Positions 14,135 through 57,470 of a DNA stretch of 64,000 nt are shown here, piece after piece. Positions within the stretch are counted from its first letter, which is position 1. Each line of letters starts with the position of its first letter. Position numbers and translations under genes: made by a program. Under the pieces are notes generated by a model that was given only the letters and a program-made list of their open reading frames with translations, made no database searches and had not been told where the DNA came from. The stretch comes from Candidatus Micrarchaeia archaeon (lineage in GTDB: Archaea > Micrarchaeota > Micrarchaeia > Burarchaeales > JACRGF01): positions 1 through 64,000 of the forward strand of contig JAWCPB010000001.1 in NCBI GenBank assembly GCA_038870455.1, in the 5' to 3' direction.

Positions 14135-14258
14135 AGCCCCGTCGTCTAGCGACCCTTTTTCGTCGAAACGAAAAAGCGTCGACGGAAAAAGGTCGGGCAA
14201 TGGCCAAGGATTCGAGGCTTTGGACCTCGAGACGTCGGTTCGAATCCGACCGGGGCTA
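14135..14258 (+). tRNA. tRNA-Gln(TTG) with a 51-nt D-loop intron (14150-14200, about position 15/16)
   Basis: Acceptor AGCCCCG/CGGGGCT, anticodon arm CGAGG-CTTTGGA-CCTCG, T arm GTCGG-TTCGAAT-CCGAC. BHB: GTC-GTCT-AGC-GACC / GGTC-GGGC-AAT-GGC. Spliced length is 73 nt. Confidence 0.92.
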
Positions 14259-14265
14259 TAACAAG

Positions 14266-15516
14266 TCAGCCGTGCCAAGTCTCTATCCTGAACGGGATCT
14301 CGACCGCCTTTTTCCTGAGCTGTTCCTCCACTTCCATGCGCACTTTCTTCAGCCTCTCCGAGCCCCGGAGTTCCGGTACCTTCTCGAGCAGGAACGTCAG
14401 GAAGAGGTGGTTGAATTTCTCAGGGAACTCCATCATCGGCATGTGGCCGCAAGCCATCTTGACGAACGTGGCCATGTTGCCGCCGTTCCCGCTGTTTATC
14501 ACGCTCGCAATCTCTTCTCCATGCCTCCAATGCACGAGCACATCGTTGAGCCCGGCCAGCACGAGCGTGGGCGCGTGGATGTCTTTCAGGAAGGGATATA
14601 GGTTCATTCTCCTCATCGCCCTGAGCGCCATCGCCATTGTCTCGACCGGAACCTCCAGCGCCCTCTGCATGAGGAGTTTCAGCTCCTCATTATCCAAGCC
14701 GTTCTCACTGTTCCTGAAAACAGTACCAGTTATCAGCGAATAGAAGATGCGGCGAAACAGCGCGTTATTCACCAGCCACGTGTTTTTCAACCTATCGATA
14801 AACGGCGCGTACTCCAGCTCAAACGAGAGGAGATCCACCCACGGCCCCAGCCGCTGCAGGTTGACGGGAAGCGTCTTGAACGGGTCGCCGTAAGGCGCCG
14901 AGAGGAGCGCCATCGCGGCGATTTTGTCGCCGTTGAATTCCTTGTAGAATTCCAGCGCGGTCAGGCCGCCCATCGAATGGCCCACGAGTATGGTCCTCTT
15001 TATTCCCTCGCTTTTCAGTATGACCGCCACGTCCTTCGCGCAATCATGGATGTACGTCGCCGTGGTGCTCGCGCCCAGCTCGGACTCGAAGTGCCCTCTC
15101 GTTCTAACCTTTATTATCCTGAAGTGCTTTCCCAGCAGGGCCGCCTGTTGCCCGTAAATGCTCGGGTAGCAGCCCCAGCCAGGCAGCATCACTATCGCGA
15201 TATCTGAAACCGGCTTTTTGGGATTGTGATCAGAGTAGCAAATTCTCGCGCCGTCGTGAGACTTTATCGCCTTCAGCGGGTCGCCGTGCCTCGTTTTTCC
15301 GATAACCTCTGGAGTGACCGCACGCACCTCACTATCCGGAGCACAGCCCGGCTTCCTCCGGATTGCTGACCTGAAATCTTCCGCTGCCCTCTCAACCCTC
15401 AAGAACGCTCTGCGAAAAACCCCATTTCCATTCTGCGGTTGAAGAAAATTGCTATGCAAACTGGGTGGCGCCCACTCTATGGCAACTCTGCTCTTCGCTG
15501 CAGTCCGGCCGCCCAT
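14266..15516 (-). CDS. Alpha/beta hydrolase with N-terminal extension
   Basis: PGW oxyanion loop, RGH, nucleophile elbow GHSMGG, GLNDVL (Asp) and CGH (His). Confidence 0.85.
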   Translation of the reverse strand: MGGRTAAKSRVAIEWAPPSLHSNFLQPQNGNGVFRRAFLRVERAAEDFRSAIRRKPGCAPDSEVRAVTPEVIGKTRHGDPLKAIKSHDGARICYSDHNPKKPVSDIAIVMLPGWGCYPSIYGQQAALLGKHFRIIKVRTRGHFESELGASTTATYIHDCAKDVAVILKSEGIKRTILVGHSMGGLTALEFYKEFNGDKIAAMALLSAPYGDPFKTLPVNLQRLGPWVDLLSFELEYAPFIDRLKNTWLVNNALFRRIFYSLITGTVFRNSENGLDNEELKLLMQRALEVPVETMAMALRAMRRMNLYPFLKDIHAPTLVLAGLNDVLVHWRHGEEIASVINSGNGGNMATFVKMACGHMPMMEFPEKFNHLFLTFLLEKVPELRGSERLKKVRMEVEEQLRKKAVEIPFRIETWHG

Positions 15517-15592
15517 GAGTAAAATATTCTCAGAGAAGGTTGTTTATAAAGCTTGCGCTAGGCATTTTTTGCTGCGTCTCTTGCGTAAATTC

Positions 15593-15892
15593 CTATACGC
15601 CCTCTGGAATGATTGGAGGGCGCTCATCAGTTCCCAGCAGGATGTATGTGATGAACTTGTACGCATAGGTGATGTAGAGCGTTATGAACTTGTGCAGCGT
15701 AGCATTGCGCTTTGCCAGCAGCAGGATGTGCAGCCACTGGATGACAAAGCAGACCCACCCCACAAAGCCGAGGACGGCCGTGACGATGTACAGTGGAATG
15801 GCCCACAGGAATCGAATGATGAGCTCAAGCCTGCTGGCCGGCTCGGCATAGCTGACCTCCAACTTCACTGTCTCCATACGACCACCTCGCAC
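15593..15892 (-). CDS. DUF4389-like small membrane protein
   Basis: SRLELIIR..WAIP, two hydrophobic segments, C-terminal TDERPP. Confidence 0.75.
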   Translation of the reverse strand: MRGGRMETVKLEVSYAEPASRLELIIRFLWAIPLYIVTAVLGFVGWVCFVIQWLHILLLAKRNATLHKFITLYITYAYKFITYILLGTDERPPIIPEGV

Positions 15893-15903
15893 GCTATTTA
15901 ACC

Positions 15904-16605
15904 TCAGTCTTTTTCAATCTTCTCTTTTTTCTCCTCACGCGCGTACTCCTCCATCACACGAATGCTCTTCACCTCTGGGAGAAGCCGCAGGGCATTCGCC
16001 ACGAAACTCGCCTTGTTGATGAGAAAGTCAGCGTCTTTCTTTACTTCCGCTGGAAAGGTGACCTCGACTACGTTCCCATCCACCCTGACTTTTCCCCGCA
16101 GCTCGTTGTTCTCGAGCAGCGCGTTTATCTTCTGCTCGAGCGAGGTGAGCTTCTCCACGACTTTTACCTCATAAGACAGCGTCTGGCCGGCCAGCAGGTG
16201 GTTGAAGTCCACCATCACCCTGCCCGAGCTCACGCTCTTCACCACTGCTGTGGCGTTGTCTATGTTCACGAGCTGGCCTGGGTAGGGCTCGATGCCGCGC
16301 CTCTTGAACTCGCTCTCGGGCAGCACGCGCACGAGACCCGGATCCCTCTGCCCGAAGGCCATGTCCGGGGAAATCTCGACTTTCCTGCTTTCCCCCACCT
16401 CCATGCCCTCGAGCGCCTCGTCAAGGCCTTTGATCACCGTGCCCCTGCCGACGACAACCAGCCCAGGCGCGTACCGCGCCTTTTCGTCGAAAATGCCCTC
16501 CTTCTTGGCCACATCAGCGCTCGTGGTGTCGAAAACGCGGTTGTCGCCCGCCGTCCTTCCAGTGTATTCTATTCTGATAAAGTCCCCTTTGCCGACTTTC
16601 GCCAT
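15904..16605 (-). CDS. FKBP-type peptidyl-prolyl isomerase, archaeal long (SlyD-like) type
   Basis: IEYTG, VFDTT, IKGLDEAL and VDFNHLLAG, plus the archaeal C-terminal domain. Confidence 0.92.
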   Translation of the reverse strand: MAKVGKGDFIRIEYTGRTAGDNRVFDTTSADVAKKEGIFDEKARYAPGLVVVGRGTVIKGLDEALEGMEVGESRKVEISPDMAFGQRDPGLVRVLPESEFKRRGIEPYPGQLVNIDNATAVVKSVSSGRVMVDFNHLLAGQTLSYEVKVVEKLTSLEQKINALLENNELRGKVRVDGNVVEVTFPAEVKKDADFLINKASFVANALRLLPEVKSIRVMEEYAREEKKEKIEKD

Positions 16606-16672
16606 TGGAAAACCTCCTTTGCTCTTTTGCCCGGAAACACAAATAAATGCTTGCTAGGCAATAAACCCCATC

Positions 16673-17860
16673 GTGAGCACGCTGTTTTCGAGAGAGAACA
16701 TCATCAAAGCCGCAGTCGTTTTGTTCGTCTTGGCCTTTCTCTTCGAACTGTTCGCCTTCGCCCCGCGGCAGGCAGCTCCCCCTCCTCCCCCTGAGCCCGA
16801 GGAGCAGGTCGAGACGGTCGTGGGGGTTGCGCTCATCAACGCGACAATAACCTCTTACGCGGCTGAGCTCGACGTGTTCGGTTCCTCTCCTGAAATAGAT
16901 TCCGCAATCAACGAGCTGAGGAAGGAAGGCAAAATCCTTTACACGAACAGGCTCTCGCCCAACAGGACGGTGCTCAACCTCGCAGGCTCCTCGCAGGCGG
17001 CGGAGGTTGCAGCGAGGCTCGCGCGCACAGGCGCGAGCGTGCTGGGCCGGGCGAGCGCAATCATTCCCGGGGCCGTCGAATTCACCATCTCAACCGGAAC
17101 GCTGCTCGCCTCAACGGGCGGCCGCGCCGTTTTTCCCCTGGACCCGAGAATCGGGGTGGGCGAGAACGTGACCATCCGCATCACCGCGCTCATCCAGCGG
17201 GGCGCAGTGGTCCAGACCGACGTCCCACGCGTCGTCCCGCAGGCCGAGGATGTTCTGCTCACCGCTGACATCAAGAACTTCACCGCGGAAGCCAAGGCCG
17301 TGCTCACGCTCGCTTGGGAAAACAGGCTGGTGAATGCGCAGGAAATCCTAAAGGGCCTCAACGAAAGCCTGCCTGGCGCGCGCGCCGCAGGCTATTCCCT
17401 CATTCCGGCAATCGGGGTGGAGAACGCGAGCGCTCCGCTCGACGCCCTGCGCAACCTGTCTTTCGTCGTGGGCGTGCAGGAGAACATCGTCACCGTGCAG
17501 GACAACTTCACCGACAGGGCGCTCGCCGAAAAAGAGATTCTCGCCGTTGCCGGCGTGAACGCCTCCCTCGTTTTTCCGGACGCGAGGCTCAACATCTCAT
17601 TCACCCTGCCCGAGAACGCTAACATCACGGAGCTGGAGGCGTTGCTGGCCGCCCGCTTTAACGCCACGCGCGCGCGCATCCTGCGCTTTGCCGCGCTCGA
17701 GTTGTCCGACAAAGCCGAGGGGCGCGGCGGCCGCCTGCTCGAGGTTCTCGACAGGAGGGCGAGCGGTTTCGTGGATGCCGACAAGCAGCTCGGGGACTCG
17801 GTGCTCGCGGCCGCAAAAGCCAGCGTGGTGGGAAGCAAGATAGTCAAAGCGGAAATCTGA
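16673..17860 (+). CDS. Membrane-anchored extracellular hypothetical protein
   Basis: N-terminal TM helix, poly-Pro linker, many N-x-S/T sequons. Confidence 0.65.
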   Translation: MSTLFSRENIIKAAVVLFVLAFLFELFAFAPRQAAPPPPPEPEEQVETVVGVALINATITSYAAELDVFGSSPEIDSAINELRKEGKILYTNRLSPNRTVLNLAGSSQAAEVAARLARTGASVLGRASAIIPGAVEFTISTGTLLASTGGRAVFPLDPRIGVGENVTIRITALIQRGAVVQTDVPRVVPQAEDVLLTADIKNFTAEAKAVLTLAWENRLVNAQEILKGLNESLPGARAAGYSLIPAIGVENASAPLDALRNLSFVVGVQENIVTVQDNFTDRALAEKEILAVAGVNASLVFPDARLNISFTLPENANITELEALLAARFNATRARILRFAALELSDKAEGRGGRLLEVLDRRASGFVDADKQLGDSVLAAAKASVVGSKIVKAEI

Positions 17861-17910
17861 TATCTTTTTATACCCCCTTCCCTCTTTGCTTTCCGGGAGG
17901 TGAGCAGAGC

Positions 17911-18171
17911 ATGGCTGAAAGAAAGCAAGTAGGCGTGGTGAGACACTACTACAACAAGATAGGCGTGGCAGCCATCGACCTCAGCGACGGGCTGAAGGTC
18001 GGCGACAAAATCGTCATCGAGGCCAACGAGGGGCCCGTCGAGCAGGTGGTCTCCAGCATGCAGATAGAGCACAAGGCCGTCGCCAAGGCTTCCGCGGGCC
18101 AGAGCGTCGGAATGAAAGTGGCTGCCAGAGTCCGCGAGGGAGACCCCGTCTTCAAGATTGTTGAGGGTTAA
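17911..18171 (+). CDS. Small translation-factor-like beta-barrel protein (EF-Tu domain II / U32 peptidase C-terminal-like)
   Basis: VGVVRHYYNKIGVAAI...LKVGD...SMQIEH...G.SVG.KV...VREGD. GGAGGTGA SD upstream. Confidence 0.75.
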   Translation: MAERKQVGVVRHYYNKIGVAAIDLSDGLKVGDKIVIEANEGPVEQVVSSMQIEHKAVAKASAGQSVGMKVAARVREGDPVFKIVEG

Positions 18172-18716
18172 GCCAGTTTGTCCCCGCCTGCGACAGCGCG
18201 CACGCGCTGCACTCCCTTCACCTCGTCTATGAAAGAGGCCACTTCAGCCGGCACGAGCCTCCTCCATTCCCTCGTTCCCCTCAGCATGCTCCTCCTTATC
18301 CTCGTGGCGTCGAAAGCCTTCCTGTCGAACAGCGGCGTGCTCCTCACTTCCTTGCCGGCGTCTTCAAAAAGCTTTTTTACGAGAGGGTTGTTGGAATAAA
18401 CGACTTCATACGCGGGCACGAGGGAATTCACGTGCGCCACCCACAGCGCGTTGTTCATGATGTCCGGAACAGACAGCACGATGGCGCGGGAGTAGTAGCT
18501 GCGTTTGGCGAGCACCCTGACAATCATGTCAATCCTCTCGCCCACAGTGAAGGGATTGTCAATGTCATAGCACTTCTGGGAGGAGCCCACGAGCACGATG
18601 AGGCGCTCGCACTCCTCTTTCTCAAGAATCCACTCGATTGCCTTGAGGTGGCCCGTGTGAAAAGGCTGGAACCTGCCGATGAAAAGCCCCCTCATGGCCC
18701 TCTCTTGGTAGCGCAT
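18168..18716 (-). CDS. nadM: Nicotinamide-nucleotide adenylyltransferase, archaeal type
   Basis: GRFQPFHTGH, GSSQ, NPFTVGER, SNNPLV and ATRIR. Confidence 0.92.
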   Translation of the reverse strand: MRYQERAMRGLFIGRFQPFHTGHLKAIEWILEKEECERLIVLVGSSQKCYDIDNPFTVGERIDMIVRVLAKRSYYSRAIVLSVPDIMNNALWVAHVNSLVPAYEVVYSNNPLVKKLFEDAGKEVRSTPLFDRKAFDATRIRRSMLRGTREWRRLVPAEVASFIDEVKGVQRVRAVAGGDKLA

Positions 18717-18746
18717 AATTAAAAAGTTTGGTGGGGAGAAAAAATC

Positions 18747-19682
18747 ATGGAAAGGCGTGTTTTCGCCCTGCTGGCCGCAGCGCTGCTGACCGGTTGCCTC
18801 GGCATCCAGCTTCCCTTCCTCGGAGGCGAGCCCAACCTCGTTCCCTCAAAGGCGGACTTCGTGCTCACCCTGCGCATCGGCGACATCGTCAGCGACCCTG
18901 ATATCCTCAAGCTCCTCAACAAGAGCGGAACCGAGTTCGAGGCCGAACTCCGCCAGGCCGAGAGCGAGACGGGCATCGACGCGAGGAAGGTGGGCAAGCT
19001 CATCATCTTCGGCAGGACCCGCGCGGGCCAGCCCTACACGGGCACCATCGCATCCGGCCAGATCGACCAGCAGGCTTTCGTCTCGAAGGCGAGGGCCGGA
19101 AAAGCCGTGGTCGAACAGACGTACCAGGGCTACACGATCTACGTAGAGCCCAAGCCCCCTGGAAATGTTTTCGCATTCATCGACGGCGTTCTCGTCTCTG
19201 GAACGCGCGAAGCCGTGCAGGACGTCATTGACGTGAAGAGGGGAGCGGCCAGGCCGTTCGACAGCGAGCAGGCGAACGAGGCAGCCGACAGGGTTGACAG
19301 GAACGCGAAGGCATTCCTCATCATGCTGGGAGAGGCCGCGCCAGCCGCGCCCATTCCCGGCACACAGGGCCTGCCGGCGCAGGCGATCGCCCTCTCGCTC
19401 GACAAGCAGGGAGGCAGTGTCGCAATCAAGGCGGCAGTTCTCGCGAACGACTCCGCGGCGGCCAGCCGCGCTTTCAACTCCATCAACGGAGGCGTTTCTC
19501 TGCTGAGGGCCCTCTCCGAGCCCGGCAGCGCGCGCGAGCGCTTCTTAAACCAAATACGGGTCGAGGCGCAGGGGAATTTCGTTCTCGTGGACATTGCGAC
19601 CACGGTGGCCGACCTCGAGGCTTTCGGGGGCGATATGGCCAGGCGGCCAGCCGCGCCAACGCCATCGCCGCAGGCGCGGTAG
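18747..19682 (+). CDS. Putative lipoprotein
   Basis: Lipobox LLTGC; 311-aa ORF with coding-like composition. Confidence 0.7.
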   Translation: MERRVFALLAAALLTGCLGIQLPFLGGEPNLVPSKADFVLTLRIGDIVSDPDILKLLNKSGTEFEAELRQAESETGIDARKVGKLIIFGRTRAGQPYTGTIASGQIDQQAFVSKARAGKAVVEQTYQGYTIYVEPKPPGNVFAFIDGVLVSGTREAVQDVIDVKRGAARPFDSEQANEAADRVDRNAKAFLIMLGEAAPAAPIPGTQGLPAQAIALSLDKQGGSVAIKAAVLANDSAAASRAFNSINGGVSLLRALSEPGSARERFLNQIRVEAQGNFVLVDIATTVADLEAFGGDMARRPAAPTPSPQAR

Positions 19683-19737
19683 CACGGACAGGCGCGGGTT
19701 TAAATACCACTTCCGACTATAAAAAATAACTAATTCT

Positions 19738-20565
19738 GTGGTTCAAATGATTGATGAGAAAGAATTTGACGCGCTCACGCCCAAAAACCGCCCCTACGCT
19801 AGCGAGCCGACTGGCAAACTCGTGAACATGTTTTTTGCACAGGGGGAGTCTGTGGGGGCGGTCGTTTCAGAGCTCGCGGTCAGGGCAAGAAAGGGGGACA
19901 ACGCTGCACTCGGAGGGCTTCTCCTGGCTCTCCAGAAAGAGAACAAGAAGCTGAGCCGGCTGGCTGCTAAGGCGCTTGGGTTGGTCGGCAAGCCCGCGCT
20001 CGACAGAATCCTGTCCACCGAACTTCTTGATCCCAGCAAGCGCGAGGGCAGCGTTAGGGACGCCGCGCTCGCCGCGCTCGCCGAGATAGGCAAAAACGAC
20101 TGGAACGCGTTCGTCGAAAAGCTGTTCGTCATAGTGTCTGAGGGCAAGATCTCAAACAATCTGACCGGGCTGATTGAAGCAACCGTGCTCATCGCCCTCG
20201 CCACGGAGGAAAAAACCGCCCGCGAGGCCGTCAGCGCGTTGATGTTCGCATCGGAGCATCCAGAGCAGCTGGTCAGCGCCAACATTTTGGACAATTTGAA
20301 GGCTATTGCCGATGCGAGGAAAGAGTTCGAGCCCTCCGTGGATGACTTCATCAAAGCCAAAGCAAAACGCGAGGAAGAGGCGGCGCGGGAGAAACAGCGG
20401 ATTCTAGAGAAAAACGCGAACGGCTCTGTGGCGATCGCCCGCGTGCCCATAGTCAAAGTGCCGGGAGTGCCGAAAAACGGAACAGTCGTCCCAATCGAAG
20501 ACGAGAAGCCCGCGGGAAAAGTCGTCCACATCGAGCAAGCCCGCGCGAGAAAGGCGGCAAAGTAA
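19738..20565 (+). CDS. HEAT-like repeat hypothetical protein
   Basis: LSRLAAKALGLVG and VRDAALAALAEIG helical repeats; TATA-like sequence upstream. Confidence 0.6.
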   Translation: MVQMIDEKEFDALTPKNRPYASEPTGKLVNMFFAQGESVGAVVSELAVRARKGDNAALGGLLLALQKENKKLSRLAAKALGLVGKPALDRILSTELLDPSKREGSVRDAALAALAEIGKNDWNAFVEKLFVIVSEGKISNNLTGLIEATVLIALATEEKTAREAVSALMFASEHPEQLVSANILDNLKAIADARKEFEPSVDDFIKAKAKREEEAAREKQRILEKNANGSVAIARVPIVKVPGVPKNGTVVPIEDEKPAGKVVHIEQARARKAAK

Positions 20566-20600
20566 CAGGCTTTAATAGTTTCTCCAACAAATTACTTTCC

Positions 20601-20781
20601 GGGCCGGTAGATCAGCGGTAAAACCCTTTTCCGACGCTTCGGAAAAGCGTTTACGGAAAAGGTTTCGCGTGAGATCGCCGCCTTCGCATGCCTCTCTGGG
20701 ATCAGAAAAAGGCGGAGGCCAGGGGTTCAAACCGAACCGCGGGAACTAGTCCGGCGGTTGGTGAAAATCCCCTCCGGTCCA
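20601..20781 (+). tRNA. tRNA-Ala(CGC) with three introns (20620-20671 D-loop; 20689-20709 canonical 37/38; 20732-20767 T-loop)
   Basis: Acceptor GGGCCGG/CCGGTCC with the G3:U70 Ala identity pair, D stem GATC/GATC, anticodon arm CCGCC-TTCGCAA-GGCGG, T arm AGGGG-TTCAAAT-CCCCT. Removing 52+21+36 nt leaves 72 nt. Each junction has a BHB or relaxed BHB. Confidence 0.9.
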
Positions 20782-20938
20782 CACGCGCTTCATGCGCTCC
20801 TTTTGTCAGTAGTTTTCTATGCCGTATGGACTCGTCTGCCTCCACTTGCCTGGAAGGCATACAAGGAAGAGGAATTCACTCCGCCGAAAATAACGAAATT
20901 GCTCTGGCTCACAGCCAGCCATCCCCAGCAAATCGTCC

Positions 20939-21211
20939 TTAGGACTTTCTTTTCACGAACAACCCGCACCAGCACCTGCCCCAATTGCTCCACGCTTCCT
21001 GTATCTTGAAGTTGCACGGGCACAGGAGCTCCAGGTCCTTTTGCTTGTCCCCGCTCGTCAGCCTGCACGGGCAGTACTTGAGGCCTTTTGTCTTCTCCAG
21101 GGCAAAAACCCCTTTTACAATAAACTCGACGTGCGCGCTGTCCGGGTTGAGCTCGAAGTCCTTTCCTTCGGTAAATCCCTTGAGGAGCTCAAGCCACTCG
21201 ATTTCATTCAC
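20939..21211 (-). CDS. Ferredoxin-thioredoxin reductase catalytic-subunit family protein
   Basis: YCPCR...LCPC...RCWCGLF motif set. Confidence 0.88.
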   Translation of the reverse strand: MNEIEWLELLKGFTEGKDFELNPDSAHVEFIVKGVFALEKTKGLKYCPCRLTSGDKQKDLELLCPCNFKIQEAWSNWGRCWCGLFVKRKS

Positions 21212-21217
21212 TTGAGC

Positions 21218-21373
21218 TCACCCAGCCACTTGCTCGATGATCGCCATCGCCTCCTCCTTTGTCACTTCGATGTAGGCGTTTTTCGCCCCGCACGTGGGGC
21301 AGATTTCTGGCGGCATGCGGCCCACATGCACGTCGCCGCAGACGGTGCAGCGGAAGAATTTTTTCGCAGGCAT
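21218..21373 (-). CDS. Rubredoxin-like small protein, 51 aa
   Basis: Below the ORF-track length cutoff. Manual translation MPAKKFFRCTVCGDVHVGRMPPEICPTCGAKNAYIEVTKEEAMAIIEQVAG has two CxxCG motifs. Confidence 0.85.
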   Translation of the reverse strand: MPAKKFFRCTVCGDVHVGRMPPEICPTCGAKNAYIEVTKEEAMAIIEQVAG

Positions 21374-21423
21374 GATTTTATATGCGAAAAGCTTTTATTT
21401 AACCTTCATGCCTCCTTTTTCTG

Positions 21424-21981
21424 GTGTGGGGTTTGCGCGTCAATCTTTTTCAGCGTCAGCCGATTCCAGCCTGGCCGCTGGTCCGATGGGAAAAGGCTGG
21501 CGAGGCATGGGATGCCAGCACGCGGCCGGGCGGAGTTCCTTTCGCCCGCGTGAGCAAAGCCTTCGTCTGTGTGCTTGGTAAAACCGGGGGAGTCGTCGCC
21601 TCGTTCATCGACAATGCGCTCTCACTTTCGATAGATGCTCCTTTTCTGGCCTTCAACGAGCTTTGTCACCTGCGCGTGGCGAAAGCGCACACCAAAAGCG
21701 AGCTTCTGCTGCGGGAAGAGGGCTCGATGTACGGGCAGACAATCAAAATCTGTGCGGATGCCGCTGAACGCGTTTTCAAGAAACTATGGAAGAGCGCGCC
21801 CCGGCAGGCTCGCGTCGTCCTGTCCGCGTGGCTGGACAGGATAGAGCGCCTGAAAGAATGCATTCCGGAAGCCGTAATGCCGAAGTACGACGGGTTTGAA
21901 GTGCGTGCGCGCATGGGGCGCGCACTGCCCGCGAAAGACTTCGCACGCATTCCGCCCTTGCTCGAGCCTTTTGGCGGCTAA
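21424..21981 (+). CDS. Hypothetical protein (start uncertain)
   Basis: Longest ORF in the gap before ftsZ; no recognisable motif. Confidence 0.35.
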   Translation: MWGLRVNLFQRQPIPAWPLVRWEKAGEAWDASTRPGGVPFARVSKAFVCVLGKTGGVVASFIDNALSLSIDAPFLAFNELCHLRVAKAHTKSELLLREEGSMYGQTIKICADAAERVFKKLWKSAPRQARVVLSAWLDRIERLKECIPEAVMPKYDGFEVRARMGRALPAKDFARIPPLLEPFGG

Positions 21982-23051: not shown

Positions 23052-23111
23052 CTGCCTCGGGGAAATTCCCCCTCTTCCGGTCGCCTGTAAGGCGAAGCGG
23101 CTTTTCCCGCC

Positions 23112-25946: not shown

Positions 25947-25967
25947 GCGACTCTCCTCGCGTGCAGT

Positions 25968-31631: not shown

Positions 31632-31633
31632 GC

Positions 31634-47463: not shown

Positions 47464-47474
47464 GGCCTCACCTG

Positions 47475-48194: not shown

Positions 48195-48198
48195 TGCA

Positions 48199-48471
48199 TC
48201 ACCTGCAGGCGGCCAGCACGGCCTGCGCCAGCTGCGCCGCATCAAACCCATACGCTTCCACGCCCGGGCGCTGGAGAAAGGCCTCCGCCTTTTTCTTTAT
48301 TTCCTCCTCGTTCACAGGCGTTCCCTCAAGCGCCTTCTCCAGCTCGGCGATGGCGTCCTCTGGGTAGAAAAAGAAGTCTCCAGTGATTTTAATGCGGCGA
48401 ATGACCTCGTCGAACTCCACGAAAATCTTGAGGAGTTTGCCTGCCTTGAAAACGCCCTTTCCACTCCTCAT
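48199..48471 (-). CDS. Lipoate--protein ligase C-terminal accessory subunit (LplB-like)
   Basis: K.GKLLK...[12 protein letters not shown]...LEKALEG; adjacent to lplA. Confidence 0.85.
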
Positions 48472-49877: not shown

Positions 49878-51145
49878 GCAACCGCCTTCTCGACCACCGC
49901 AACAAATTCGTCGATGTCCGCGCTGGTCGTGGTTTCAGTTGCGCACAGCAGCCACTCCCGCCTGCCGAGCGGAATCCCTCCGAGCATGCCTTTCTTCAGC
50001 AGAGCTTTGTTGAGTTTCTTTGGCGAGACGGGCGTGCTGGCCGCAAACTCGTTGTAAAAAGGCTTGTCATGGAGGAGGGCGAAGCCGAGGGAGGCAAGCC
50101 TGCTCTGGAGCTCGTGCGCTCTCTTGAAGGAAAGCGCGGCAACCCTTTGGAGACCGCTTTTTCCGAGGAGAGCCAGGTAAATCGTTGCGGCGAGCGTGTT
50201 GAGCGCGTGATTGGTGCAGATGTTTGAAGTCGCCCTCTCCCTCCTGATGTGCTGCTCCCTCGCCTGCAGGGTGAGGATGAAGCCCCTCTGCCCTCTTGAA
50301 TCGACAGTCATCCCGGCAAGCCTTCCTGGCATCTTCTTTACGTGCTCGCTCCTCACCGCCATGAAAGCACCGTAGGGGCCTCCGAAATTCAACCCGTTGC
50401 CAAAGGCCTGCAGCTCTCCGACAACAATATCCGCGCCATAGTCCCCCGGGGGCTTGAGGAGCGCGAGCGAAGTCGGGTCAGAGACCGCCACAACCAAAAG
50501 CGCGCCCGCCGCGTGTGCGGCTTCAGCGAATTCATCCACCCTCTCAATGCAGCCGAAGTAATTCGGATTCTGAACAATCGCGCATGCGGTTTTTTCTGAA
50601 ATCTTTTTTCCAATCCTGAAGCCGCATGATTTCGCATATGTTCTCAGCGTCTTTTCGTATTCCGGGTTCAGCGGGTTGGCGATGAACGCCTCGCGCCTGC
50701 CCGTTTCCGAGCGCGAGAGGAAAAAGGCTTCGGCGAGCGCAGAGCCGGTCTCGTAGAGGCCTGCGTTTGCGGCGTCCATGCCGGTGAGCAGACAGATCAG
50801 AGTCTGGAATTCGTAGATTGCCTGGAGAGTCCCCTGGCTGACCTCCGGCTGGTATGGTGTATAAGCGGTGTAGAATTCTCCCCTGAGGAGAAGGTGATTG
50901 ACTGCGGAAGGAATGTAATGATTATAGGCCCCCCCTCCACGGAAAACCCGCAGGAGCTTGTTCTTCTCACTCAGGGCCTTCATATGGCTTGCGAGCTCCA
51001 GCTCGCTCATCGGCTGCGGGAGGTCGAGTGGCCTGTTAAGCAAGGGAGCGAGCCCTGCTTTCTGGATGAGCTCATTCACGCTCGCCGCGCCAACTGCAGA
51101 GAGCATGGCGCGTTTGTCTTCTTCGGTCAGGGGAATGAAGTTCAT
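49874..51145 (-). CDS. gcvPA: Glycine dehydrogenase (decarboxylating) subunit 1
   Basis: [14 protein letters not shown] and [17 protein letters not shown]. Confidence 0.97.
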
Positions 51146-51156
51146 GGCAAAAACCG

Positions 51157-51531
51157 TTAGTGCTGAGGTGCGCTCTTCGTGTATTCTTCGTACGCCTTTT
51201 CATCCATCAGCTTGTCGAGTTCTTTGAGGTTGGCCGGCTTGAGCTTGACCATCCAGCCCTTCTCGTACGGGGATTGATTGACCAGTTGGGGAGCAGTGAG
51301 CAGCTCGGAATTCACCTCGACTACCTCCCCGGATACCGGAGCGTATACGTCGCTGCTCGCCTTCATGGAATCGACAACAGCGATGGAATCGCCCTGTTTG
51401 AACTTGGCGCCGACCTTCGGGAGCTCGAGCGAGACGATGTCGCCCAAGGCCTTTTGGGCGAAGTCCGTGATTCCGACAAACGCAAGCCCTTCCTTGATTT
51501 CCACCCACTCGTGTTCTTTGGTGAATCTCAT
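51157..51531 (-). CDS. gcvH: Glycine cleavage system H protein
   Basis: HEWV, GITDFAQ, lipoyl-Lys motif DSMKASSD, PVSG, PY..GW. Confidence 0.96.
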   Translation of the reverse strand: MRFTKEHEWVEIKEGLAFVGITDFAQKALGDIVSLELPKVGAKFKQGDSIAVVDSMKASSDVYAPVSGEVVEVNSELLTAPQLVNQSPYEKGWMVKLKPANLKELDKLMDEKAYEEYTKSAPQH

Positions 51532-51550
51532 CCTACTCGCCTCCCAACAC

Positions 51551-52636
51551 CTACTTTCTTTCAATTTTATAAAATCTATGGCTTGTTGTCCTCGCCGGGA
51601 AAAGCCTCTCTCTTATTTTGATTTGAATCTGGCTCCCGAGAGGCAAATCCACGGGAACAAAACAAAAGCCGATGGGCTTGCCGAGCGTCGGGGAGAAAGT
51701 GCCGCTCGTCACCACGTCGAATTGTTTCCCGTTCACGAAAACCTCGTTGCCATGCCTGGGGACAGCGCGCTCTAGAAGCTCAAACCCCACCAGCTTGCGC
51801 TTTGGAGGGTTTGCGAGAAGCGCCCCTTTGCCGATGAAATCCCCTTTGTCGAACTTGACCGTCCATGCCAGGGGCGCCTCGAGCGGGGTGATGTCATCCG
51901 TTATGTCGTTCCCATACAGCATGAGGCCCGCCTCAAGGCGCAGCGTGTCGCGCGCGCCCAGCCCGCAGGGCTTTATGCCGAACTCCGCGCCGGCTTCCAT
52001 GAGCGCGTGCCACATCTTTTCAGCATGCTCGGGGGAAAAGTAAATCTCGAAGCCGTCTTCTCCAGTGTAGCCTGTCCTCGAGACGAGGCAGGGCACGCCC
52101 GCGACAGGAAATTCGGCGAAGTGGAAGTAGGCGATGGAAGAGAGGTTGAAATCGGTGAGCTTCTGCAGAGTCGCCTGTGCCTTAGGCCCCTGCAGCGCGA
52201 GCTCCGCTACCTCGCTGCTGATGTTGCGCAACTCCGCCCCCTGCCGATTGTGTGCGTTCATCCAAGCCCAGTCCTTGTCGGTGGTGGAGGCGTTTACCAC
52301 AATGAAAAAATCGTCGGCTTTCCGGCGATATACGAGCAGGTCATCCACAACACCCCCTCGCTCGTTGCACATTGGGGAGTAGAGGGCCTGTCCGTCGGCG
52401 AGTTTTGAGGCATCGTTTGTGATGATGTGCTGAATGAAGGCGAGCGCGTTTTCTCCCTTCACTTCAATCTCCCCCATGTGCGAAACATCGAAGAGCCCCA
52501 CTGCTTTTCTCACGGCATCGTGTTCTTCTATGATGGAGGAATACTGTACGGGCATCTCCCACCCGCCGAATTCCACCATCTTGGCGCCCAACGAACGATG
52601 GATGGCGTTGAACGGTGTGCTCTTCATCGGAACCAC
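51551..52636 (-). CDS. gcvT: Glycine cleavage system T protein (aminomethyltransferase)
   Basis: FGGWEMPVQY, FDVSHMG, RTGYTGEDGFE, GLGARDTLRLEAG. Confidence 0.97.
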   Translation of the reverse strand: MVPMKSTPFNAIHRSLGAKMVEFGGWEMPVQYSSIIEEHDAVRKAVGLFDVSHMGEIEVKGENALAFIQHIITNDASKLADGQALYSPMCNERGGVVDDLLVYRRKADDFFIVVNASTTDKDWAWMNAHNRQGAELRNISSEVAELALQGPKAQATLQKLTDFNLSSIAYFHFAEFPVAGVPCLVSRTGYTGEDGFEIYFSPEHAEKMWHALMEAGAEFGIKPCGLGARDTLRLEAGLMLYGNDITDDITPLEAPLAWTVKFDKGDFIGKGALLANPPKRKLVGFELLERAVPRHGNEVFVNGKQFDVVTSGTFSPTLGKPIGFCFVPVDLPLGSQIQIKIRERLFPARTTSHRFYKIERK

Positions 52637-52679
52637 GCTCTCGGGAATGATTTAAAGTCATTTTTTATAATTACCTGTC

Positions 52680-54029
52680 ATGACCTCGCTCACCTTTTTC
52701 GGTGGCGTGAATGAGATAGGCGGCAACAAAATACTCATCGAGGACCGAGCTACGCGCGTCTTCCTTGATTTTGGCCAGTCCTTTACGCTGCTTGATGGTT
52801 TTTTCGTGCCCGAGGCCTTCCTCAAGCCCCGCGAGCGGTTCGGCCTGCGCGACCTGCTCGCGCTCGGCCTCATACCGAGCCTTCCCGGCCTTTATTCAAA
52901 AAAGGCGCTGTCGCACTCAGAACTGAAATTCAGCGACCCCAAGTTCCACGGCATCTTCATCACACATGCGCACTTTGACCACGTGGCGCACCTCGAGTAC
53001 CTGCATCCAGAAATCCCCATTTACCTCGGCGAGTGCACAAAGCTCATCTTGGACTCGATGCAGCAGACCATGGCCGGCGTGGAGCTTTACTCCGAGGAAA
53101 ACAAGATTGAAACCTTCAGGACTGGCAAGGAAATCAGGGTGGATTCGATTTCCCTCAAGCCTTTTCATGTGGACCACTCGGTCCCGGGCGCATACGGCTA
53201 CATCGTGGCAACGAGCGAGGGCACGATGGCCTACACCGGCGACCTGCGCATGCACGGTCCGCGCGCCGACATGACGGGCGAGTTCGTGGAAAAGGCGGGC
53301 GAGAGCGATGCCGACGCCCTCATCATCGAGGGCACGCGCGTGCAGCCCGAGGAAAAGAGAAAGAATCACTCCGAGCAGGTGGTGTTGGAGGAGTCGATGA
53401 GGCTGGCGCGCGAGAGCAAGGGGTTCATACTCGCCATGCGCTACCCGCGCGACATAGACCGCTTCCGCACCTTCTATACGGTGGCTAAGGCGACGGGCAG
53501 GCAGCTCGTGATCTCGACAAAAACAGCACATCTTTTGCGCACGCTTCAGCGAGACCCACAGCTCAGGCTGCCCGACCCCCTCTCGGACCCCAACCTGCTC
53601 ATCCACGACAGGCGCCTGCTCAGGCCCGGGCTGTGGGAGGAGCCCTTTCTCCAGCATGCCGTAACCTCGGGTTTTATCCGGGAAAATCAGTCAAAGCTGA
53701 TTGTTGAGCTTGACTTCTATGCCCTGCCCGAGCTCATCGACATCCGCCCCGCGGGCGGAGACTGCATTCACTCCATGAGCGAGCCGTTCGAGGAGGATCC
53801 CCTCTCTCAAATTTCTGACGAGGTGCTCGACAACTGGCTGAATCTGTTCGGCTTAAGGAAACACCAGCTGCATGCCTCCGGCCATGCCAGCAAGAGCCAG
53901 ATTTTCGAGATGATTGAAAGGATAGGGCCGAAGAAAGTCTTCCCAATACACACGCTGAACCAGAGCCTATTCAGAGAAGCGAACGAGAAAACAGTGGTGG
54001 TGGAAAAGGGGAAAAAATACATTCTGTGA
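52680..54029 (+). CDS. Metallo-beta-lactamase / beta-CASP ribonuclease (RNase J-like)
   Basis: GGVNEIGGN, THAHFDH, VDHS, YTGD, HASGHA, PIHT. Confidence 0.85.
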   Translation: MTSLTFFGGVNEIGGNKILIEDRATRVFLDFGQSFTLLDGFFVPEAFLKPRERFGLRDLLALGLIPSLPGLYSKKALSHSELKFSDPKFHGIFITHAHFDHVAHLEYLHPEIPIYLGECTKLILDSMQQTMAGVELYSEENKIETFRTGKEIRVDSISLKPFHVDHSVPGAYGYIVATSEGTMAYTGDLRMHGPRADMTGEFVEKAGESDADALIIEGTRVQPEEKRKNHSEQVVLEESMRLARESKGFILAMRYPRDIDRFRTFYTVAKATGRQLVISTKTAHLLRTLQRDPQLRLPDPLSDPNLLIHDRRLLRPGLWEEPFLQHAVTSGFIRENQSKLIVELDFYALPELIDIRPAGGDCIHSMSEPFEEDPLSQISDEVLDNWLNLFGLRKHQLHASGHASKSQIFEMIERIGPKKVFPIHTLNQSLFREANEKTVVVEKGKKYIL

Positions 54030-54047
54030 TTTTTGGCGCGACACGAA

Positions 54048-54686
54048 TTAGGCAGGAACCGTCTCATTCCTGTAAAGAGTCACGCTCCTCGTTTTCGTTA
54101 CATTGGCCTTCCTGGGGAGCTCAGCGTAATGCACGCCGTCGTGCGGGAGGATTGTTATCCGCACGTTGCCAAGGTCGATGTAACAGGAGTAGGGTCCGAC
54201 ATACTGCTCGGGCTTGAAGATGCCCGACGGCAGGACCACCTCGCGGCCAGACAACGCGTACATCTCGGTCACCACGTTGCTCACCCGAAAGTGGAGGTTG
54301 TGCTGCGGCGCGCTGTCCATCACGCCATCATACTCAGCATTGAAATACACGTGAAACGGGTTGGGGTTTGACAGCACGAGCGAGGCGGCGCATTCCTCCT
54401 CGCTGTCAGAAACGTTCTGCGAGCGCACGATGGACAGGTTCTTCACCTCCACATTCTGCGGGCCCGCGAGCACGCGCGCCATGAGCTCAACCTCTTCCAC
54501 ATAAGTTTCATTGACTTCATAAGGAACGAGGACCGTGCGCGTGGCCGGGGTGATGTTTGCAGGAGGCGCGGGCGGGATAATTGGCGGCGTGGCATTCTGC
54601 GTGACGTTCGGCGCTGGCGGGGGCGGGAGAAGCGGGCATCCCAGCAGGAGCATGGCGATGGCAGCCACGAGCGCGAGGCGTTTCAT
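54048..54686 (-). CDS. Putative lipoprotein
   Basis: Start at MKRLALVAA, LLGC lipobox, Pro-rich linker. Confidence 0.65.
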   Translation of the reverse strand: MKRLALVAAIAMLLLGCPLLPPPPAPNVTQNATPPIIPPAPPANITPATRTVLVPYEVNETYVEEVELMARVLAGPQNVEVKNLSIVRSQNVSDSEEECAASLVLSNPNPFHVYFNAEYDGVMDSAPQHNLHFRVSNVVTEMYALSGREVVLPSGIFKPEQYVGPYSCYIDLGNVRITILPHDGVHYAELPRKANVTKTRSVTLYRNETVPA

Positions 54687-54741
54687 TTTCCCTATTGCAC
54701 ATTGAAAAGCTATCTTTAAATACCAATAACTGCATAAAAAA

Positions 54742-55740
54742 TTGCTCGTGCAACAAATCACCAAAAGGGAGGCAGCCCGCATCCGCTTCGCCGCGCGTGT
54801 TTTTGCCGGTGGCACAAACAAAGATACAGAGGACTTTGAACGCATTCTGAAAAAGCTCTATGTGGGGGAAGGGCTCGAGAAGAGAAAAACAAAGCCCACT
54901 GAGATAGATCCGGACATCGTGGCAGGAAACAAACTTGCTCTGAAAATTAGAGAACACCCTCTATACGACGAAATTCGTAAGCTTCCCATTGGAAACACAG
55001 CGGATCGCGTGACGACTTCTCTTGTTTTTTATTACGGCATTGAAGGCGAGGATGTTCCGAGGGCCAAAGATTTCGTGAACGCGCTGCTGGAAAAGAACCC
55101 GGCCATTAACGAAAGCCCGGCCAAAATCTACGCTGGCTTGAAGTCGCCATCGGACGACATTGCCGCGGGTGCGGCCGAAAAGCTCTTTCTCACGCGCTCG
55201 CCCAGCGCGCCGCGCATTCTTCTCGCAATGTTGGCCAGCAGCGCCCGTTCGGGCCGTGCGACGCTGCTTGAGAAGGTCAAGGGCCTGCTGGCAGAGGCTG
55301 CGTTGCAGTCAGAAGAAAATTTCAGGAAAATCTCCATAGGGCTGGCGCGGCTTATTCCAAAAGGAGAGGAAGTCAGGAAGGCCGCCGAGGAAGTGCTGTA
55401 TGCGCTTTTCTGGCACGACATTCCGGCCTTTCTCACATCGCTTAAGGAAAGCCGGCTGGCAAAAACGATCATCGCGGGAGGGACGGTCACAGCGCTCGTT
55501 GGGCTGGCCCACGCAGGAAGCGAGGGGGTTGAGGCCGCAAGAGCTCTTTTGGCCAAAAACTTCTGGGGGGCGCTAGCTAACGTCGTCTCGATGGCGCTTA
55601 ATCTGGTTCCCGCCGCTTTTGGCGCGCTGTTCGCCAACAAATATCTCGCATCCTACACCGAGCTGGCCAACGATGTACAGACGCTGATAGGCGAGGCCTG
55701 GAGAAAAGCGGAAGCGTTCCTTTCCGCCAAAGTCGCGTGA
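54742..55740 (+). CDS. Hypothetical alpha-helical protein with C-terminal hydrophobic segments
   Basis: 332-aa ORF filling the gap; TATA-like TTTAAATA upstream. Confidence 0.55.
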   Translation: MLVQQITKREAARIRFAARVFAGGTNKDTEDFERILKKLYVGEGLEKRKTKPTEIDPDIVAGNKLALKIREHPLYDEIRKLPIGNTADRVTTSLVFYYGIEGEDVPRAKDFVNALLEKNPAINESPAKIYAGLKSPSDDIAAGAAEKLFLTRSPSAPRILLAMLASSARSGRATLLEKVKGLLAEAALQSEENFRKISIGLARLIPKGEEVRKAAEEVLYALFWHDIPAFLTSLKESRLAKTIIAGGTVTALVGLAHAGSEGVEAARALLAKNFWGALANVVSMALNLVPAAFGALFANKYLASYTELANDVQTLIGEAWRKAEAFLSAKVA

Positions 55741-55755
55741 GGCGTGCCGCAAGAC

Positions 55756-57255
55756 CTACTTTTTTCTTCCCTTAAACAACACCGCTAGGTCTTCCTCAAT
55801 GCTGGCGGTGCTCTTCTCGCTTTCGGTGAGCTTTCCCTCGATTTTCTCGCGTCTCTCCTCGAGCCTGCGCAGCCTCTCGCCAGCGCTCCTACCGCCCTCC
55901 ATCTGCTTGAGCAGCTCCTCAAAGCGCGCGCTGATTTCCTTGCTTTCCTGAATCATCTGCGCCAGGCTCTTCTTGGCAGCATCGGCCTTGGCGTTCAGCG
56001 CCTCTTCCTTCTTGAGCACCTGTTTGACCTCGTACTCATGGCTCTCGCTGAGCTCCTTGAGCTCCTTCAGGTACTTCCGCACGAAGCCCGTTTCCACGGC
56101 TTCCCTCAGGGCATTGAACTCGCTCTCGTTTTCCTTCACGTACGCAGTGAACTCGCCGAACTTCCTCTCGTACTCCTTTTGATAAGCGCTTATCCATTCA
56201 TCGACCTTGCGCAGCTCGGCGATGGCCTTCTCGAGTTCGGCCACGCGCGCGTTCTCGCCATGCAGGCGTGCCCTAGCGTCGTCAATGCGCTTCTTGGTTT
56301 CGGCCTCGCTCTGCTTGAGCTTGGCGAGCGTTTCCTCCATGTCCTTTATTCTCGCGTTCTCAAGCTCGATGCGCTCCCGGGCTTCCTTGATGTGCGCCTT
56401 CGTCTCGCGCTCGATGTCGGACAGCCTGGCGAGCGCGTTCTCCATGTCGTCAAGGCTGGCCGTCTCCTTGGCGATGGTCTTCCTCGCCTCCTCCGAGCTC
56501 CTGGTCACGCCGGCCTGCAGCTCGCGCAGCAGGCTCACGGTCTGCTGTATCTTGCCGGTGGTCTCGTCGAGCGCCTTCCTGGCCTCCTCCTCCTTCTGCT
56601 TCAGCTTGAGCACGTCCAGCTCGACATTGCTTATCATGTCCGGAATCTCGATGGCCCTCTGGCGCAGGCGCAGAATCTGCGTTTCCTTGGCCTGCAGGCG
56701 GTCTTCGAGCGCCTCCAGCTCGGCCTCGAGCCTTTTTGCAATGGGCAGGTAGGCATCACGCACGAGAGTTTCGCGCTCGCTCTTCAGCTCCTCAATCTCC
56801 TTGGCCTTCTGGTTGATTTCGGAAATCTTCGCCTTGAGCGCCTCGGACAAATCGACTATCTCCTTGGGCTTGGCCTCGCGCGCCGGCGCGGGCGTCTTGG
56901 CCTCAGGCTTTGCCTCCTCGGCCTTGACCGGCTTCTTTATCTCCTGCTGAATTTCCTTTGCTGACGAGAGAAGCCTCTCGAGCTTTTCCTCAAGCTGCGG
57001 CTTTTCCCTCGGCGCTACGGCCTGGGAGAGCGTCGGGAGCCTCGCCTCGCCCTTCCACACGGCGTAAGCGCGCGTGAGGTGATACTCTATCCTGACGAGG
57101 CCCTGTTCCTCGAGCACGCGGCACCACTTCTCGACATCCCTCGTCCCGAGGCCCGTGCCCTTGGCGAGCTCGCTGACCTCGACGCGTCCCTTTTCCTTGA
57201 GCAGCCTCAGCACCCTGTCCACGTCAGTGCTGATGAAAGCATCTTCCTTCGTCAC
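55756..57255 (-). CDS. Winged-helix N-terminal domain plus long coiled-coil protein
   Basis: ISTDVDRVLRLLKEKG.VEVSELA...VEKWCRVLEEQGLVRIEY wHTH-like start, then ~400 aa of E/K/L-rich heptads. Probable GTG start at 57255. Confidence 0.75.
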   Translation of the reverse strand: MTKEDAFISTDVDRVLRLLKEKGRVEVSELAKGTGLGTRDVEKWCRVLEEQGLVRIEYHLTRAYAVWKGEARLPTLSQAVAPREKPQLEEKLERLLSSAKEIQQEIKKPVKAEEAKPEAKTPAPAREAKPKEIVDLSEALKAKISEINQKAKEIEELKSERETLVRDAYLPIAKRLEAELEALEDRLQAKETQILRLRQRAIEIPDMISNVELDVLKLKQKEEEARKALDETTGKIQQTVSLLRELQAGVTRSSEEARKTIAKETASLDDMENALARLSDIERETKAHIKEARERIELENARIKDMEETLAKLKQSEAETKKRIDDARARLHGENARVAELEKAIAELRKVDEWISAYQKEYERKFGEFTAYVKENESEFNALREAVETGFVRKYLKELKELSESHEYEVKQVLKKEEALNAKADAAKKSLAQMIQESKEISARFEELLKQMEGGRSAGERLRRLEERREKIEGKLTESEKSTASIEEDLAVLFKGRKK

Positions 57256-57288
57256 GCAATCCCCCCACACATCAGAACCAACCGATGA

Positions 57289-57470
57289 CTTTTCCGTCAA
57301 CGCTTTTGCCGGATCGCCGGCAAAAGGGTTGTATCGTTGGTTCCGATACCTCCGAACCGCGGGAACCTACGGTTCCCCCAGTTCCAGGTTCCTCCTGACC
57401 CCTCCCTTTTCCGTCAACGCTTTTGCCGGATCGCCGGCAAAAGGGTTGTATCGTTGGTTCCGATACCTCC
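57289..57470. repeat. Perfect 65-bp direct repeat (57289-57353 and 57406-57470) with internal hairpins, flanking a 52-bp spacer
   Basis: CTTTTCCGTCAACGCTTTTGCCGGATCGCCGGCAAAAGGGTTGTATCGTTGGTTCCGATACCTCC occurs twice. The spacer contains the inverted repeat GGGAACCTACGGTTCCC. Confidence 0.95.

Follow-up and report, generated by a model that had tools for sequence, protein, structure and literature searches.

In the Thermoproteales, tRNA introns that have been described as 'transposed' (Fujishima et al. 2010) are the closest known parallel to what follows, as related in the available text of PMC4090602 and bioRxiv 10.64898/2026.10.13.758758, both of which call the mechanism by which transfer RNA (tRNA) introns arrive unknown. 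In Micrarchaeota, the ARMAN-2 endonuclease (the protein of PDB entry 4fz2) cuts both strict and relaxed splicing motifs, according to the part of PMC3239211 that was available. How, then, does a tRNA gene come by a new intron? The material considered here is a window of 64,000 nucleotides, the whole stretch of DNA that was analysed, which forms the start of contig C1 (JAWCPB010000001.1) in the Candidatus Micrarchaeia assembly GCA_038870455.1 (1.04 Mb in 51 contigs, 90% complete, 0.86% contamination). Its subject is a short hairpin-bearing repeat, element A, which lies within two tRNA genes and twice within a gene spacer. Element A is probably the conserved core of a small non-autonomous mobile family that is found across Archaea and has expanded to at least 54 copies in this genome. 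An earlier sequence-only reading of the window had proposed that such an element is spreading here, is tolerated because bulge-helix-bulge (BHB) splicing removes it, and is a source of new tRNA introns, a proposal that gains support from the further copies and the empty sites described below.

The four copies proposed for the window are all where they had been placed (Table 1). The tail pattern AAAGCGTNNACGGAAAA, with at most one mismatch, is matched four times against 0.01 times expected from dinucleotide shuffles, and none of 100 shuffled windows reached four matches, which disposes of the concern that shuffled controls might do as well. The element has the form RACCC-TTTT-variable hairpin-AAAAG-CGTNNACG-GAAAA and a length of about 40 bases. 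The 46 copies that were parsed contain 26 distinct hairpins, with a mean contiguous closing stem of 5.04 bp versus 3.12 +/- 0.31 (maximum 4.12) in 1000 arm swaps, and changes within the inner stem are compensatory (CGG/CCG, GCCGG/CCGGC, CCGA/TCGG, GCGC/GCGC, GCC/GGC and CGT/ACG). Loops of the CGNN type form the majority, and the hairpin that had been read from the window copies is upheld. The alternative pairing that had been suggested for the tail, with the 5' arm, is the RNAfold minimum-energy fold of the Gln and Ala introns, and the Leu intron folds likewise; in the Gln(TTG) intron the fold with the 5' arm paired to the tail has z = -4.38. For the intergenic GCCGG variant a plain 10-bp hairpin is preferred by the same program (z = -3.71 for 57289-57329). 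No intramolecular pairing common to all copies was found that accounts for the invariant GCGTNNACGG and the A-runs flanking it. Readings of the element as a K-turn or a hammerhead were rejected on inspection of the folds, since neither fits the family as a whole, as was an internal bulge-helix-loop built from GCGU-NNA-CGG, which fits only the CCG-RCGC variants. Rfam 15 holds no family for the element; in the window and in nine loci of the outgroup genome G013 all of its matches were to tRNA.

The expectation that further copies exist is borne out by iterated nhmmer searches of the 1,038,003 bases of the genome, from which the count of 54 derives. Twenty tRNA genes hold 31 of the copies, every one in sense, at sites in the D-loop and at 37/38, 53/54 and 59/60; this figure is a hand count, because several multi-intron tRNAs, including Ala(CGC), Pro(CGG), Lys(CTT) and Thr(CGT), were not resolved by the BHB finder and ARAGORN and had to be parsed by hand. 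Some single introns hold two or three copies in tandem, as in the 107-nt intron of Val(CAC), the 167-nt intron of Pro(GGG) and the T-loop of Lys(CTT). A second small hairpin module, B, links tandem copies. The remaining 23 copies are found in mosaic arrays with modules C, D and E, in an operon spacer (the block in the window), in one gene resembling a C/D-box small RNA (sRNA) and at contig ends. At least 10 copies abut contig ends, and some of these may therefore belong to broken tRNA introns. The Rfam tRNA model finds 15 genes above its cut-off here versus 28 in the congener introduced below; ARAGORN run in intron mode on the raw genome gave mostly wrong models and was set aside.

Two of the other contexts can be described individually. 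The copy at contig C6:23142-23183 is arranged as GTGATGA ... element ... GTGATGATGA ... CTGA and sits between apparent D' and C' boxes; with a C/D-box sRNA, tolerance of the element would extend to a second class of stable-RNA genes. A 5' half of tRNA-Arg(CCG) at C11:9296-9340 runs into a trailer of A-B-A-C repeats, beyond which the sequence is unrelated, and a matching 3' half, comprising the 3' strand of the anticodon stem, the T arm and the acceptor, lies behind repeat modules at about C38:130-176. Either the tRNA gene is split, or the assembly has broken within a very long intron.

Evidence of mobility comes from comparison with relatives. The relatives are a congener of this genome (G001; this genome is G000), which belongs to the same genus and is 77-83% identical over aligned syntenic stretches, and the outgroup genomes G003, G004 and G013. 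The tRNA-Gln(CTG) gene (C1:79819-79941) carries a 50-nt intron with element A at 37/38, the syntenic ortholog in the congener is intronless, and the gene is uninterrupted in G003, G004 and G013. Likewise, a 49-nt A intron interrupts tRNA-Leu(GAG) in this genome (C39:2360-2496), and the gene is intronless in G001, G013 and G004. With tRNA-Thr(TGT) the D-loop intron of the congener lacks exactly the 33-nt core, and tRNA-Ser(GCT), intronless in the congener, contains a module-C intron of 68 nt in this genome. The orthologous gene spacer of the congener is only about 13 nt long at the place where the window holds a 200-nt block of repeats, the block being absent there. Empty-site orthologs, which had been sought as a check on mobility, are thus found for the Gln(CTG) and Leu(GAG) introns and for block 57270-57471. 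The core of the Leu(GAG) intron at 37/38 is nearly identical to that of the Lys(CTT) D-loop intron, which indicates that it was copied from gene to gene and from one position to another. Matches to the strict tail number 37 here versus 6 in the congener, where, as in all other genomes, the count comes from exact patterns and is a lower bound. On sequence comparison, the element is shown to have newly entered tRNA genes and one gene spacer in this lineage, and since the two A introns are absent from close relatives they give a direct view of how new tRNA introns can arise.

Elsewhere on the same comparison, the tRNA-Val(CAC) and tRNA-Glu(CTC) loci, introns included (C33:9034-10289), are 96-97% identical to those of the congener (L064) and the adjoining gene 83%, with some 700 nt between the two tRNA genes (9319-10019) having no counterpart there.

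The manner in which the element would be removed from tRNA transcripts was followed with a BHB finder whose geometry comprises an outer helix, a central helix of 4 bp, two 3-nt bulges cut after the second base, and an inner helix, the spliced products being judged by ARAGORN. The tRNA provides the outer helix with its D, anticodon or T stem, and in the central helix the opening four loop bases of the 5' exon pair with four bases close to the 3' end of the intron. The ends of the element, ACCCTTTT and AAAAGGGT, form the intron-internal helix, in that (A)ACCCTTTT pairs with the A-run of the tail and the GGGT or GGTT that follows it to give helix H2 in every resolved case; the ACCCUUUU/AAAAGGGU pairing would thus be an H2 that the element itself supplies. 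Because the central helix draws on bases near the intron 3' end, each intron ends in a short site-specific adaptor of about 6 nt which pairs with those four loop bases. The same geometry, with an adaptor that pairs with the exon, explains why the favoured sites 20/21, 37/38 and 59/60 all lie six bases past a stem. Finder and ARAGORN together accept Gln(TTG), Ala(GGC) with two introns, Leu(GAG), Val(CAC), Thr(TGT), Pro(GGG) and others, the acceptance of Pro(GGG) applying to its canonical and T-loop introns only, with its D-loop intron left unresolved. The motif is strict in Gln(TTG) and Ala(GGC), and the central helix is 3/4 for Leu(GAG), Val(CAC) and Thr(TGT).

The enzyme expected to act on these motifs is present. 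A 387-aa EndA matches PDB 4fz2 over its full length (E = 3e-135), and the genome encodes what is, judged from this match, a broad-specificity splicing endonuclease of the epsilon2 type. Relatives of this EndA are found in Candidatus Micrarchaeia/Micrarchaeota metagenome-assembled genomes (MAGs); the organism is a Micrarchaeia archaeon, not a member of the Thermoproteales. A second, short EndA-like open reading frame (PF01974, 53 bits) was noticed at locus L002 (G000:C2:65932-69174).

Within the window itself (Table 1), splicing is predicted after mature nucleotide 15 in tRNA-Gln and 20 in tRNA-Ala, in agreement with the insertion points of about 15/16 and 20/21 that had been read from the sequence. 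The intron bounds given by that reading, 14152-14192 and 20623-20662, proved too narrow; the introns extend past the 41-nt element, which is therefore the core of each intron and not the whole of it. The BHB of the Gln(TTG) intron has an H1 of 3 bp, a central helix of 4/4 and an H2 of 4 bp. The tRNA-Ala(CGC) gene was not rebuilt by the finder with ARAGORN, and its structure comes from a hand parse, with G3:U70, anticodon CGC, a D-stem of GATC/GATC and a T-stem of AGGGG/CCCCT. Its first intron has, by hand, a central helix GCGG/TCGC, bulges TA|A and GT|G, and an inner helix AACC..TTTT / AAAAGGTT, with one A.A mismatch adjoining the D stem; RNAfold agrees with this BHB. The CCGAACCGCGGGAAC word near the start of its third intron is met again at 57353-57367 as well as among other tRNA introns and trailers. 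Because both genes are interrupted, ARAGORN finds no tRNA in the raw window and Rfam only the 3' part of tRNA-Gln (14202-14258).

Table 1. Element A, its tRNA introns and the associated repeat block in the 64,000-nt window.
Feature	Position	Strand	Basis or remark
tRNA-Gln(TTG) gene, one D-loop intron	14135..14258	+	73-nt tRNA-Gln(ttg) by ARAGORN once 14150-14200 is removed
tRNA-Gln(TTG) intron, 51 nt, after mature nt 15, core 14152-14192	14150..14200	+	strict hBHBh'
tRNA-Ala(CGC) gene, three introns	20601..20781	+	hand parse
Ala(CGC) D-loop intron 1, 50 nt, after mature nt 20, core 20623-20662	20621..20670	+	hand-derived BHB
Ala(CGC) intron 2, canonical 37/38, without element A	20689..20709	+	hand parse; boundary slides within an A run
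Ala(CGC) intron 3, T-loop 59/60, start resembles repeat module E (CCGAACCGCGGGAAC)	20732..20767	+	hand parse
Mosaic repeat block D5'-A-E-D5'-A-D3'	57270..57471	-	lies between stop of rpl10e-like gene and start of winged helix-turn-helix/coiled-coil gene
Element A copy, GCCGG-CGAT-CCGGC variant, module D arms on flanks	57289..57329	-	pattern and nhmmer
Element A copy, identical to 57289-57329	57406..57446	-	pattern and nhmmer
Module E, inverted relative to both A copies of the block	57353..57406	+	+ strand is the sense of E in tRNA introns

The two free intergenic copies are present as had been claimed, though not as solitary elements, both lying within the 200-nt mosaic block. This block is made wholly of repeat modules that are present at many other sites, and a k-mer count marks 57270-57470 as a repeat island (at k = 14 the census is too permissive and was used only to list large islands). 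No convincing BHB that would excise the intergenic copies was found, a single 102-nt candidate (57381-57280) scoring 5/4/3, and the contigs of three runs over 50000-64000 include no RNA cover of the block. Source-metagenome contigs break inside both A copies, at 57299 and 57441; their summed depth of 76.8 in the bin 57005-57471, where most bins nearby have about 8-14, is what a collapsed multi-copy repeat would give. Module D, at 57270-57289, 57331-57354 and 57448-57471, carries inverted ends some 15 nt in length, ATCGGAACCAACGAT / ATCGGTTGGTTCTGAT. At other sites either element A or a 46-nt insert of unrelated sequence lies within it, and on contig C44 it forms 83-nt tandem units. [quoted passage not shown]

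How widely is the element distributed? The strict tail is present in 13 of 41 relatives, this genome included, and in 40 of 401 genomes of a phylum sample, where the reversed-pattern control gave two matches in all; beside this genome the counts, again lower bounds, include 22 in G013, 14 in G080 and 12 in G240. The 23-base pattern CCCTTTT-N(8-38)-AAAAGCGTNNACGGAAAA recovers at least 120 stretches from 596 Gb of genome contigs, for which a rough estimate of the chance expectation is below one, and it has no match in viral contigs. Among the matches listed, all 80 records carry archaeal titles, and they come from Micrarchaeota, Aenigmatarchaeota, Nanoarchaeia, Nanohaloarchaea, Parvarchaeota, Iainarchaeum, Altiarchaeota, Thermoplasmata, Methanocellales, ANME-1/Methanophagales, Syntrophoarchaeum and others. 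In at least 25 of these 80 loci a tRNA is recovered when one stretch around the element is deleted, 16 of them in the anticodon loop, 2 in the D region and 7 in the variable/T region, two of the last (after nt 72/73) being copies flush behind the tRNA 3' end and not introns. The idea of a mobile element spreading locally therefore stands as regards expansion in this genome and falls as regards a purely local burst, since the family is pan-archaeal.

In G013 the element is longer, with an inner hairpin of 60-90 nt between the same ends, and its copies occupy canonical introns of tRNAs, positions directly behind tRNA 3' ends, and other sites. Direct repeats of 29-36 nt flank 3 of 21 copies (20 loci); they measure 29, 36 and 34 nt at L028, L037 and L038, unusually long for a transposon footprint, and the L028 repeat duplicates the last codons and stop of an opposite-strand gene. 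A 16S rRNA gene of an Aenigmatarchaeota MAG (L173) has the element core inserted in its conserved GGATTAGATACCC region.

What could move such a sequence? Y1 transposase, reverse transcriptase, tyrosine integrase and viral matches being absent, the copying is inferred to take place at the level of DNA, and hints in the same direction are the inversion of module E relative to A in the block, the nested module mosaics, and spacer copies without a convincing BHB. The element would move as DNA by way of host replication or repair functions, or of some unrecognised factor, and not of a resident transposase. Insertions would survive only where RNA processing removes them, as in tRNA loops six bases past a stem, leaders and trailers, or where they are harmless, as in spacers, and the tolerance of the endonuclease for relaxed motifs would allow fresh insertions to be spliced before their adaptor has been optimised.

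A number of observations weigh against mobility of this kind. No gene for Y1_Tnp (PF01797), RVT_1 or Phage_integrase is present in this genome, which is 90% complete, so that the linked HUH/TnpA-REP or reverse transcriptase gene that had been looked for as a partner is missing, and a TnpB Zn-ribbon match falls below threshold. Among ten other element-bearing genomes a Y1 transposase occurs in four and a reverse transcriptase in two, and G013, with 22 copies in a genome that is 100% complete, has neither. The target duplications that might have been expected are not seen at the three empty sites (Gln(CTG), Leu(GAG) and the spacer), beyond 1-2 ambiguous bases, and neither are long terminal inverted repeats; MITE-type ends on A are limited to the 8-nt CTTTTCCG / CGGAAAAG type in some variants only. 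Classical cut-and-paste or MITE mechanics are therefore not shown. The fresh Gln(CTG) intron has no strict BHB by the finder used here, excision is a prediction for every A copy, and the site-specific 3' adaptors are hard to reconcile with blind insertion of DNA. The two window introns are old, in that the congener has introns at the same positions as the Gln and Ala introns, with the Ala hairpin deleted and the tails decayed; given that decay, part of the uniformity seen here could be due to concerted evolution. A precise empty site could in principle reflect intron loss in each relative, and a tail of 18 nt that is kept from phylum to phylum is explained no better by a parasite than by a selected function.

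A further-reaching version of the mobile reading is conceivable, if distinctly speculative. Element A would then be a domain-wide, gene-less selfish element that exploits BHB splicing, by which insertions in tRNA and rRNA genes would be rendered harmless, together with host replication or repair, by which it would be copied, and its pyrimidine-purine-purine tracts with CGTNNACG would fold in single-stranded DNA into a hairpin-plus-triplex that triggers copying. If this were so, the element would be a major and still active source of new archaeal tRNA introns, and the pairing of intron-rich tRNA sets with broad-specificity endonucleases would be explained.

The same tracts also allow a reading that involves no parasite. 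The CTTTT / AAAAG / GAAAA runs with the 8-nt CGTNNACG linker might be a class II intrastrand triplex or a protein-binding site, a structural element selected by the host which acts on DNA or RNA near stable-RNA genes, whether in replication, in transcription or in protecting tRNA genes from integrating elements, the introns being a harmless carrier. The tail is identical across distant phyla with a variable hairpin, copies cluster at tRNA genes, and the order of the tracts is that of class II in the available text of Holder et al. 2015 (PMC4666352). Over the pan-archaeal matches as a set, the post-core arm mirrors the pre-core arm in 37 versus repeats it in 17 of 81 unique pairs, with 27 ties (p = 0.009), and mirror matches number 252 of 588 versus a control mean of 160 (maximum 190). 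However, the mirror signal is not significant in this genome (11 vs 7), symmetric arms of the A3GA3 type account for much of it, and only 5-6 triads can be formed here, fewer than the stem size of 6 used in PMC4666352, as far as its available text goes. According to the same source purine-motif triplexes do not form in RNA, and the triplex motif therefore cannot explain the role in introns. Occurrence is patchy (40 of 401 genomes, with 1 to 37 copies), and since congener copies decay and presence varies, an essential function at any given site is unlikely. A host-selected element is on these grounds an improbable account of the whole, and triplex formation would be a rival or an add-on, not the explanation.

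Spread at the level of RNA is somewhat less probable again. Excised circular introns would be reinserted by a reversed action of endonuclease and ligase at a BHB formed in trans, followed by reverse transcription and recombination. All 31 tRNA copies lie in sense, the insertion sites are BHB-compatible ones, and in G013 the copies adjoining tRNA genes are co-oriented in five cases versus one opposed (hand count); reuse at T-loops, where many tRNAs begin with the same four bases, would be explained if the adaptor came along from the donor, and the 80 matches listed come only from archaeal MAGs, that is, from the domain that has this splicing system. Sense orientation in tRNA genes is, however, predicted equally well by selection alone, the adaptors of the two fresh introns pair only 3/4 with their new exons, and the spacer copies lack a convincing BHB. 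Reverse transcriptase is absent here and in 8 of the 10 other element-bearing genomes, and the window block mixes module orientations; for these two reasons reinsertion is disfavoured, and the alternative offered by the sequence-only reading, that excised introns reinsert elsewhere, finds little support.

Still less credible is a history with no mobility at all, in which ancient introns are inherited vertically, their cores are homogenised by gene conversion, and the differences between relatives are losses. The congener does have the introns of Gln(TTG), Ala(CGC), Thr(CGT) and Pro(CGG) in identical positions, the tandem copies of a given intron hardly differ from one another, as would follow from gene conversion or slippage, and the tRNA-Val locus, A-B-A intron included, matches the congener at 96-97.5% identity versus about 83% for the flanking gene. 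Such a history nevertheless requires, for each of two tRNAs, independent precise losses in the congener and in two to three outgroup families. It also leaves unexplained the 200-nt block in a spacer of about 13 nt, the copies in a C/D-box-like gene and in a 16S rRNA gene of another phylum, and the presence of the element in many different tRNA species across phyla. That the intergenic copies are remnants of a degraded tRNA gene can be effectively discarded: module E of the block does resemble tRNA intron sequence, yet no tRNA-like match exists in 57100-57650 even at E<=10 (with only a chance-level Rfam match), the congener spacer is about 13 nt long, and the block consists wholly of modules known from many other sites.

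The value of the mobile reading lies in the fact that a single short sequence is met with as an old intron, as a fresh intron with intronless orthologs and as a free insertion in a spacer. With these three states and a pan-archaeal spread, the route by which tRNA introns arrive opens to tests with defined substrates and with data from populations. A practical side is that standard finders miss most tRNA genes here (ARAGORN detects none in the window, and genome-wide only 15 pass the Rfam cut-off) and a model of the element would improve the annotation of DPANN genomes.

How, finally, does the element compare with what has been described? In the papers searched on tRNA intron transposition, BHB motifs, MITEs, Micrarchaeota and intrastrand triplexes no description of it was found; supplementary tables were outside this coverage, and the tRNA tables of PMC3239211 might list introns that bear the core. 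Candidatus Micrarchaeum acidiphilum ARMAN-2, of the same lineage and with the same endonuclease architecture, likewise has many non-canonical introns, including some at 53/54 and 59/60, and the available text of that account (PMC3239211) makes no mention of a repeated intron core, intergenic copies or recent gains. The PIT, BoxC and TMECO triplex repeats, as presented in the available text of PMC4666352, share the class II order of pyrimidine, purine and mirrored purine and are dispersed in multiple copies; element A differs in being archaeal and tied to introns, in its 8-nt palindromic second loop and in a predicted 5-6 triads in this genome.

Bacterial repetitive extragenic palindromic (REP) sequences and bacterial interspersed mosaic elements (BIMEs), small palindromic repeats and MITEs are likewise short hairpin units with compensatory stems that form mosaic arrays, and they share with element A the location in operon spacers, the high copy number and the breaking of assemblies at copies. 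Here, in contrast, there is no RAYT/Y1 transposase, no target duplication and no long inverted terminus on A; where REP/REPIN systems go with a single-copy RAYT gene that has the repeats on its flanks, PF01797 is absent from this genome and from 6 of the 10 other element-bearing genomes. Element A differs too in entering stable-RNA genes, where its insertions would be rescued by protein-catalysed splicing. It is the transposed introns of the Thermoproteales, so far as the available accounts describe them, that come nearest, since there too related sequences occur in different tRNA genes and positions, constrained by the BHB and served by a broad-specificity endonuclease. The system described here belongs to another phylum and uses an epsilon2 enzyme, and it is distinguished by a short, defined core with invariant ends, by free copies outside tRNA genes and tandem copies within single introns, by empty-site orthologs, and by the occurrence of the same core in many phyla.

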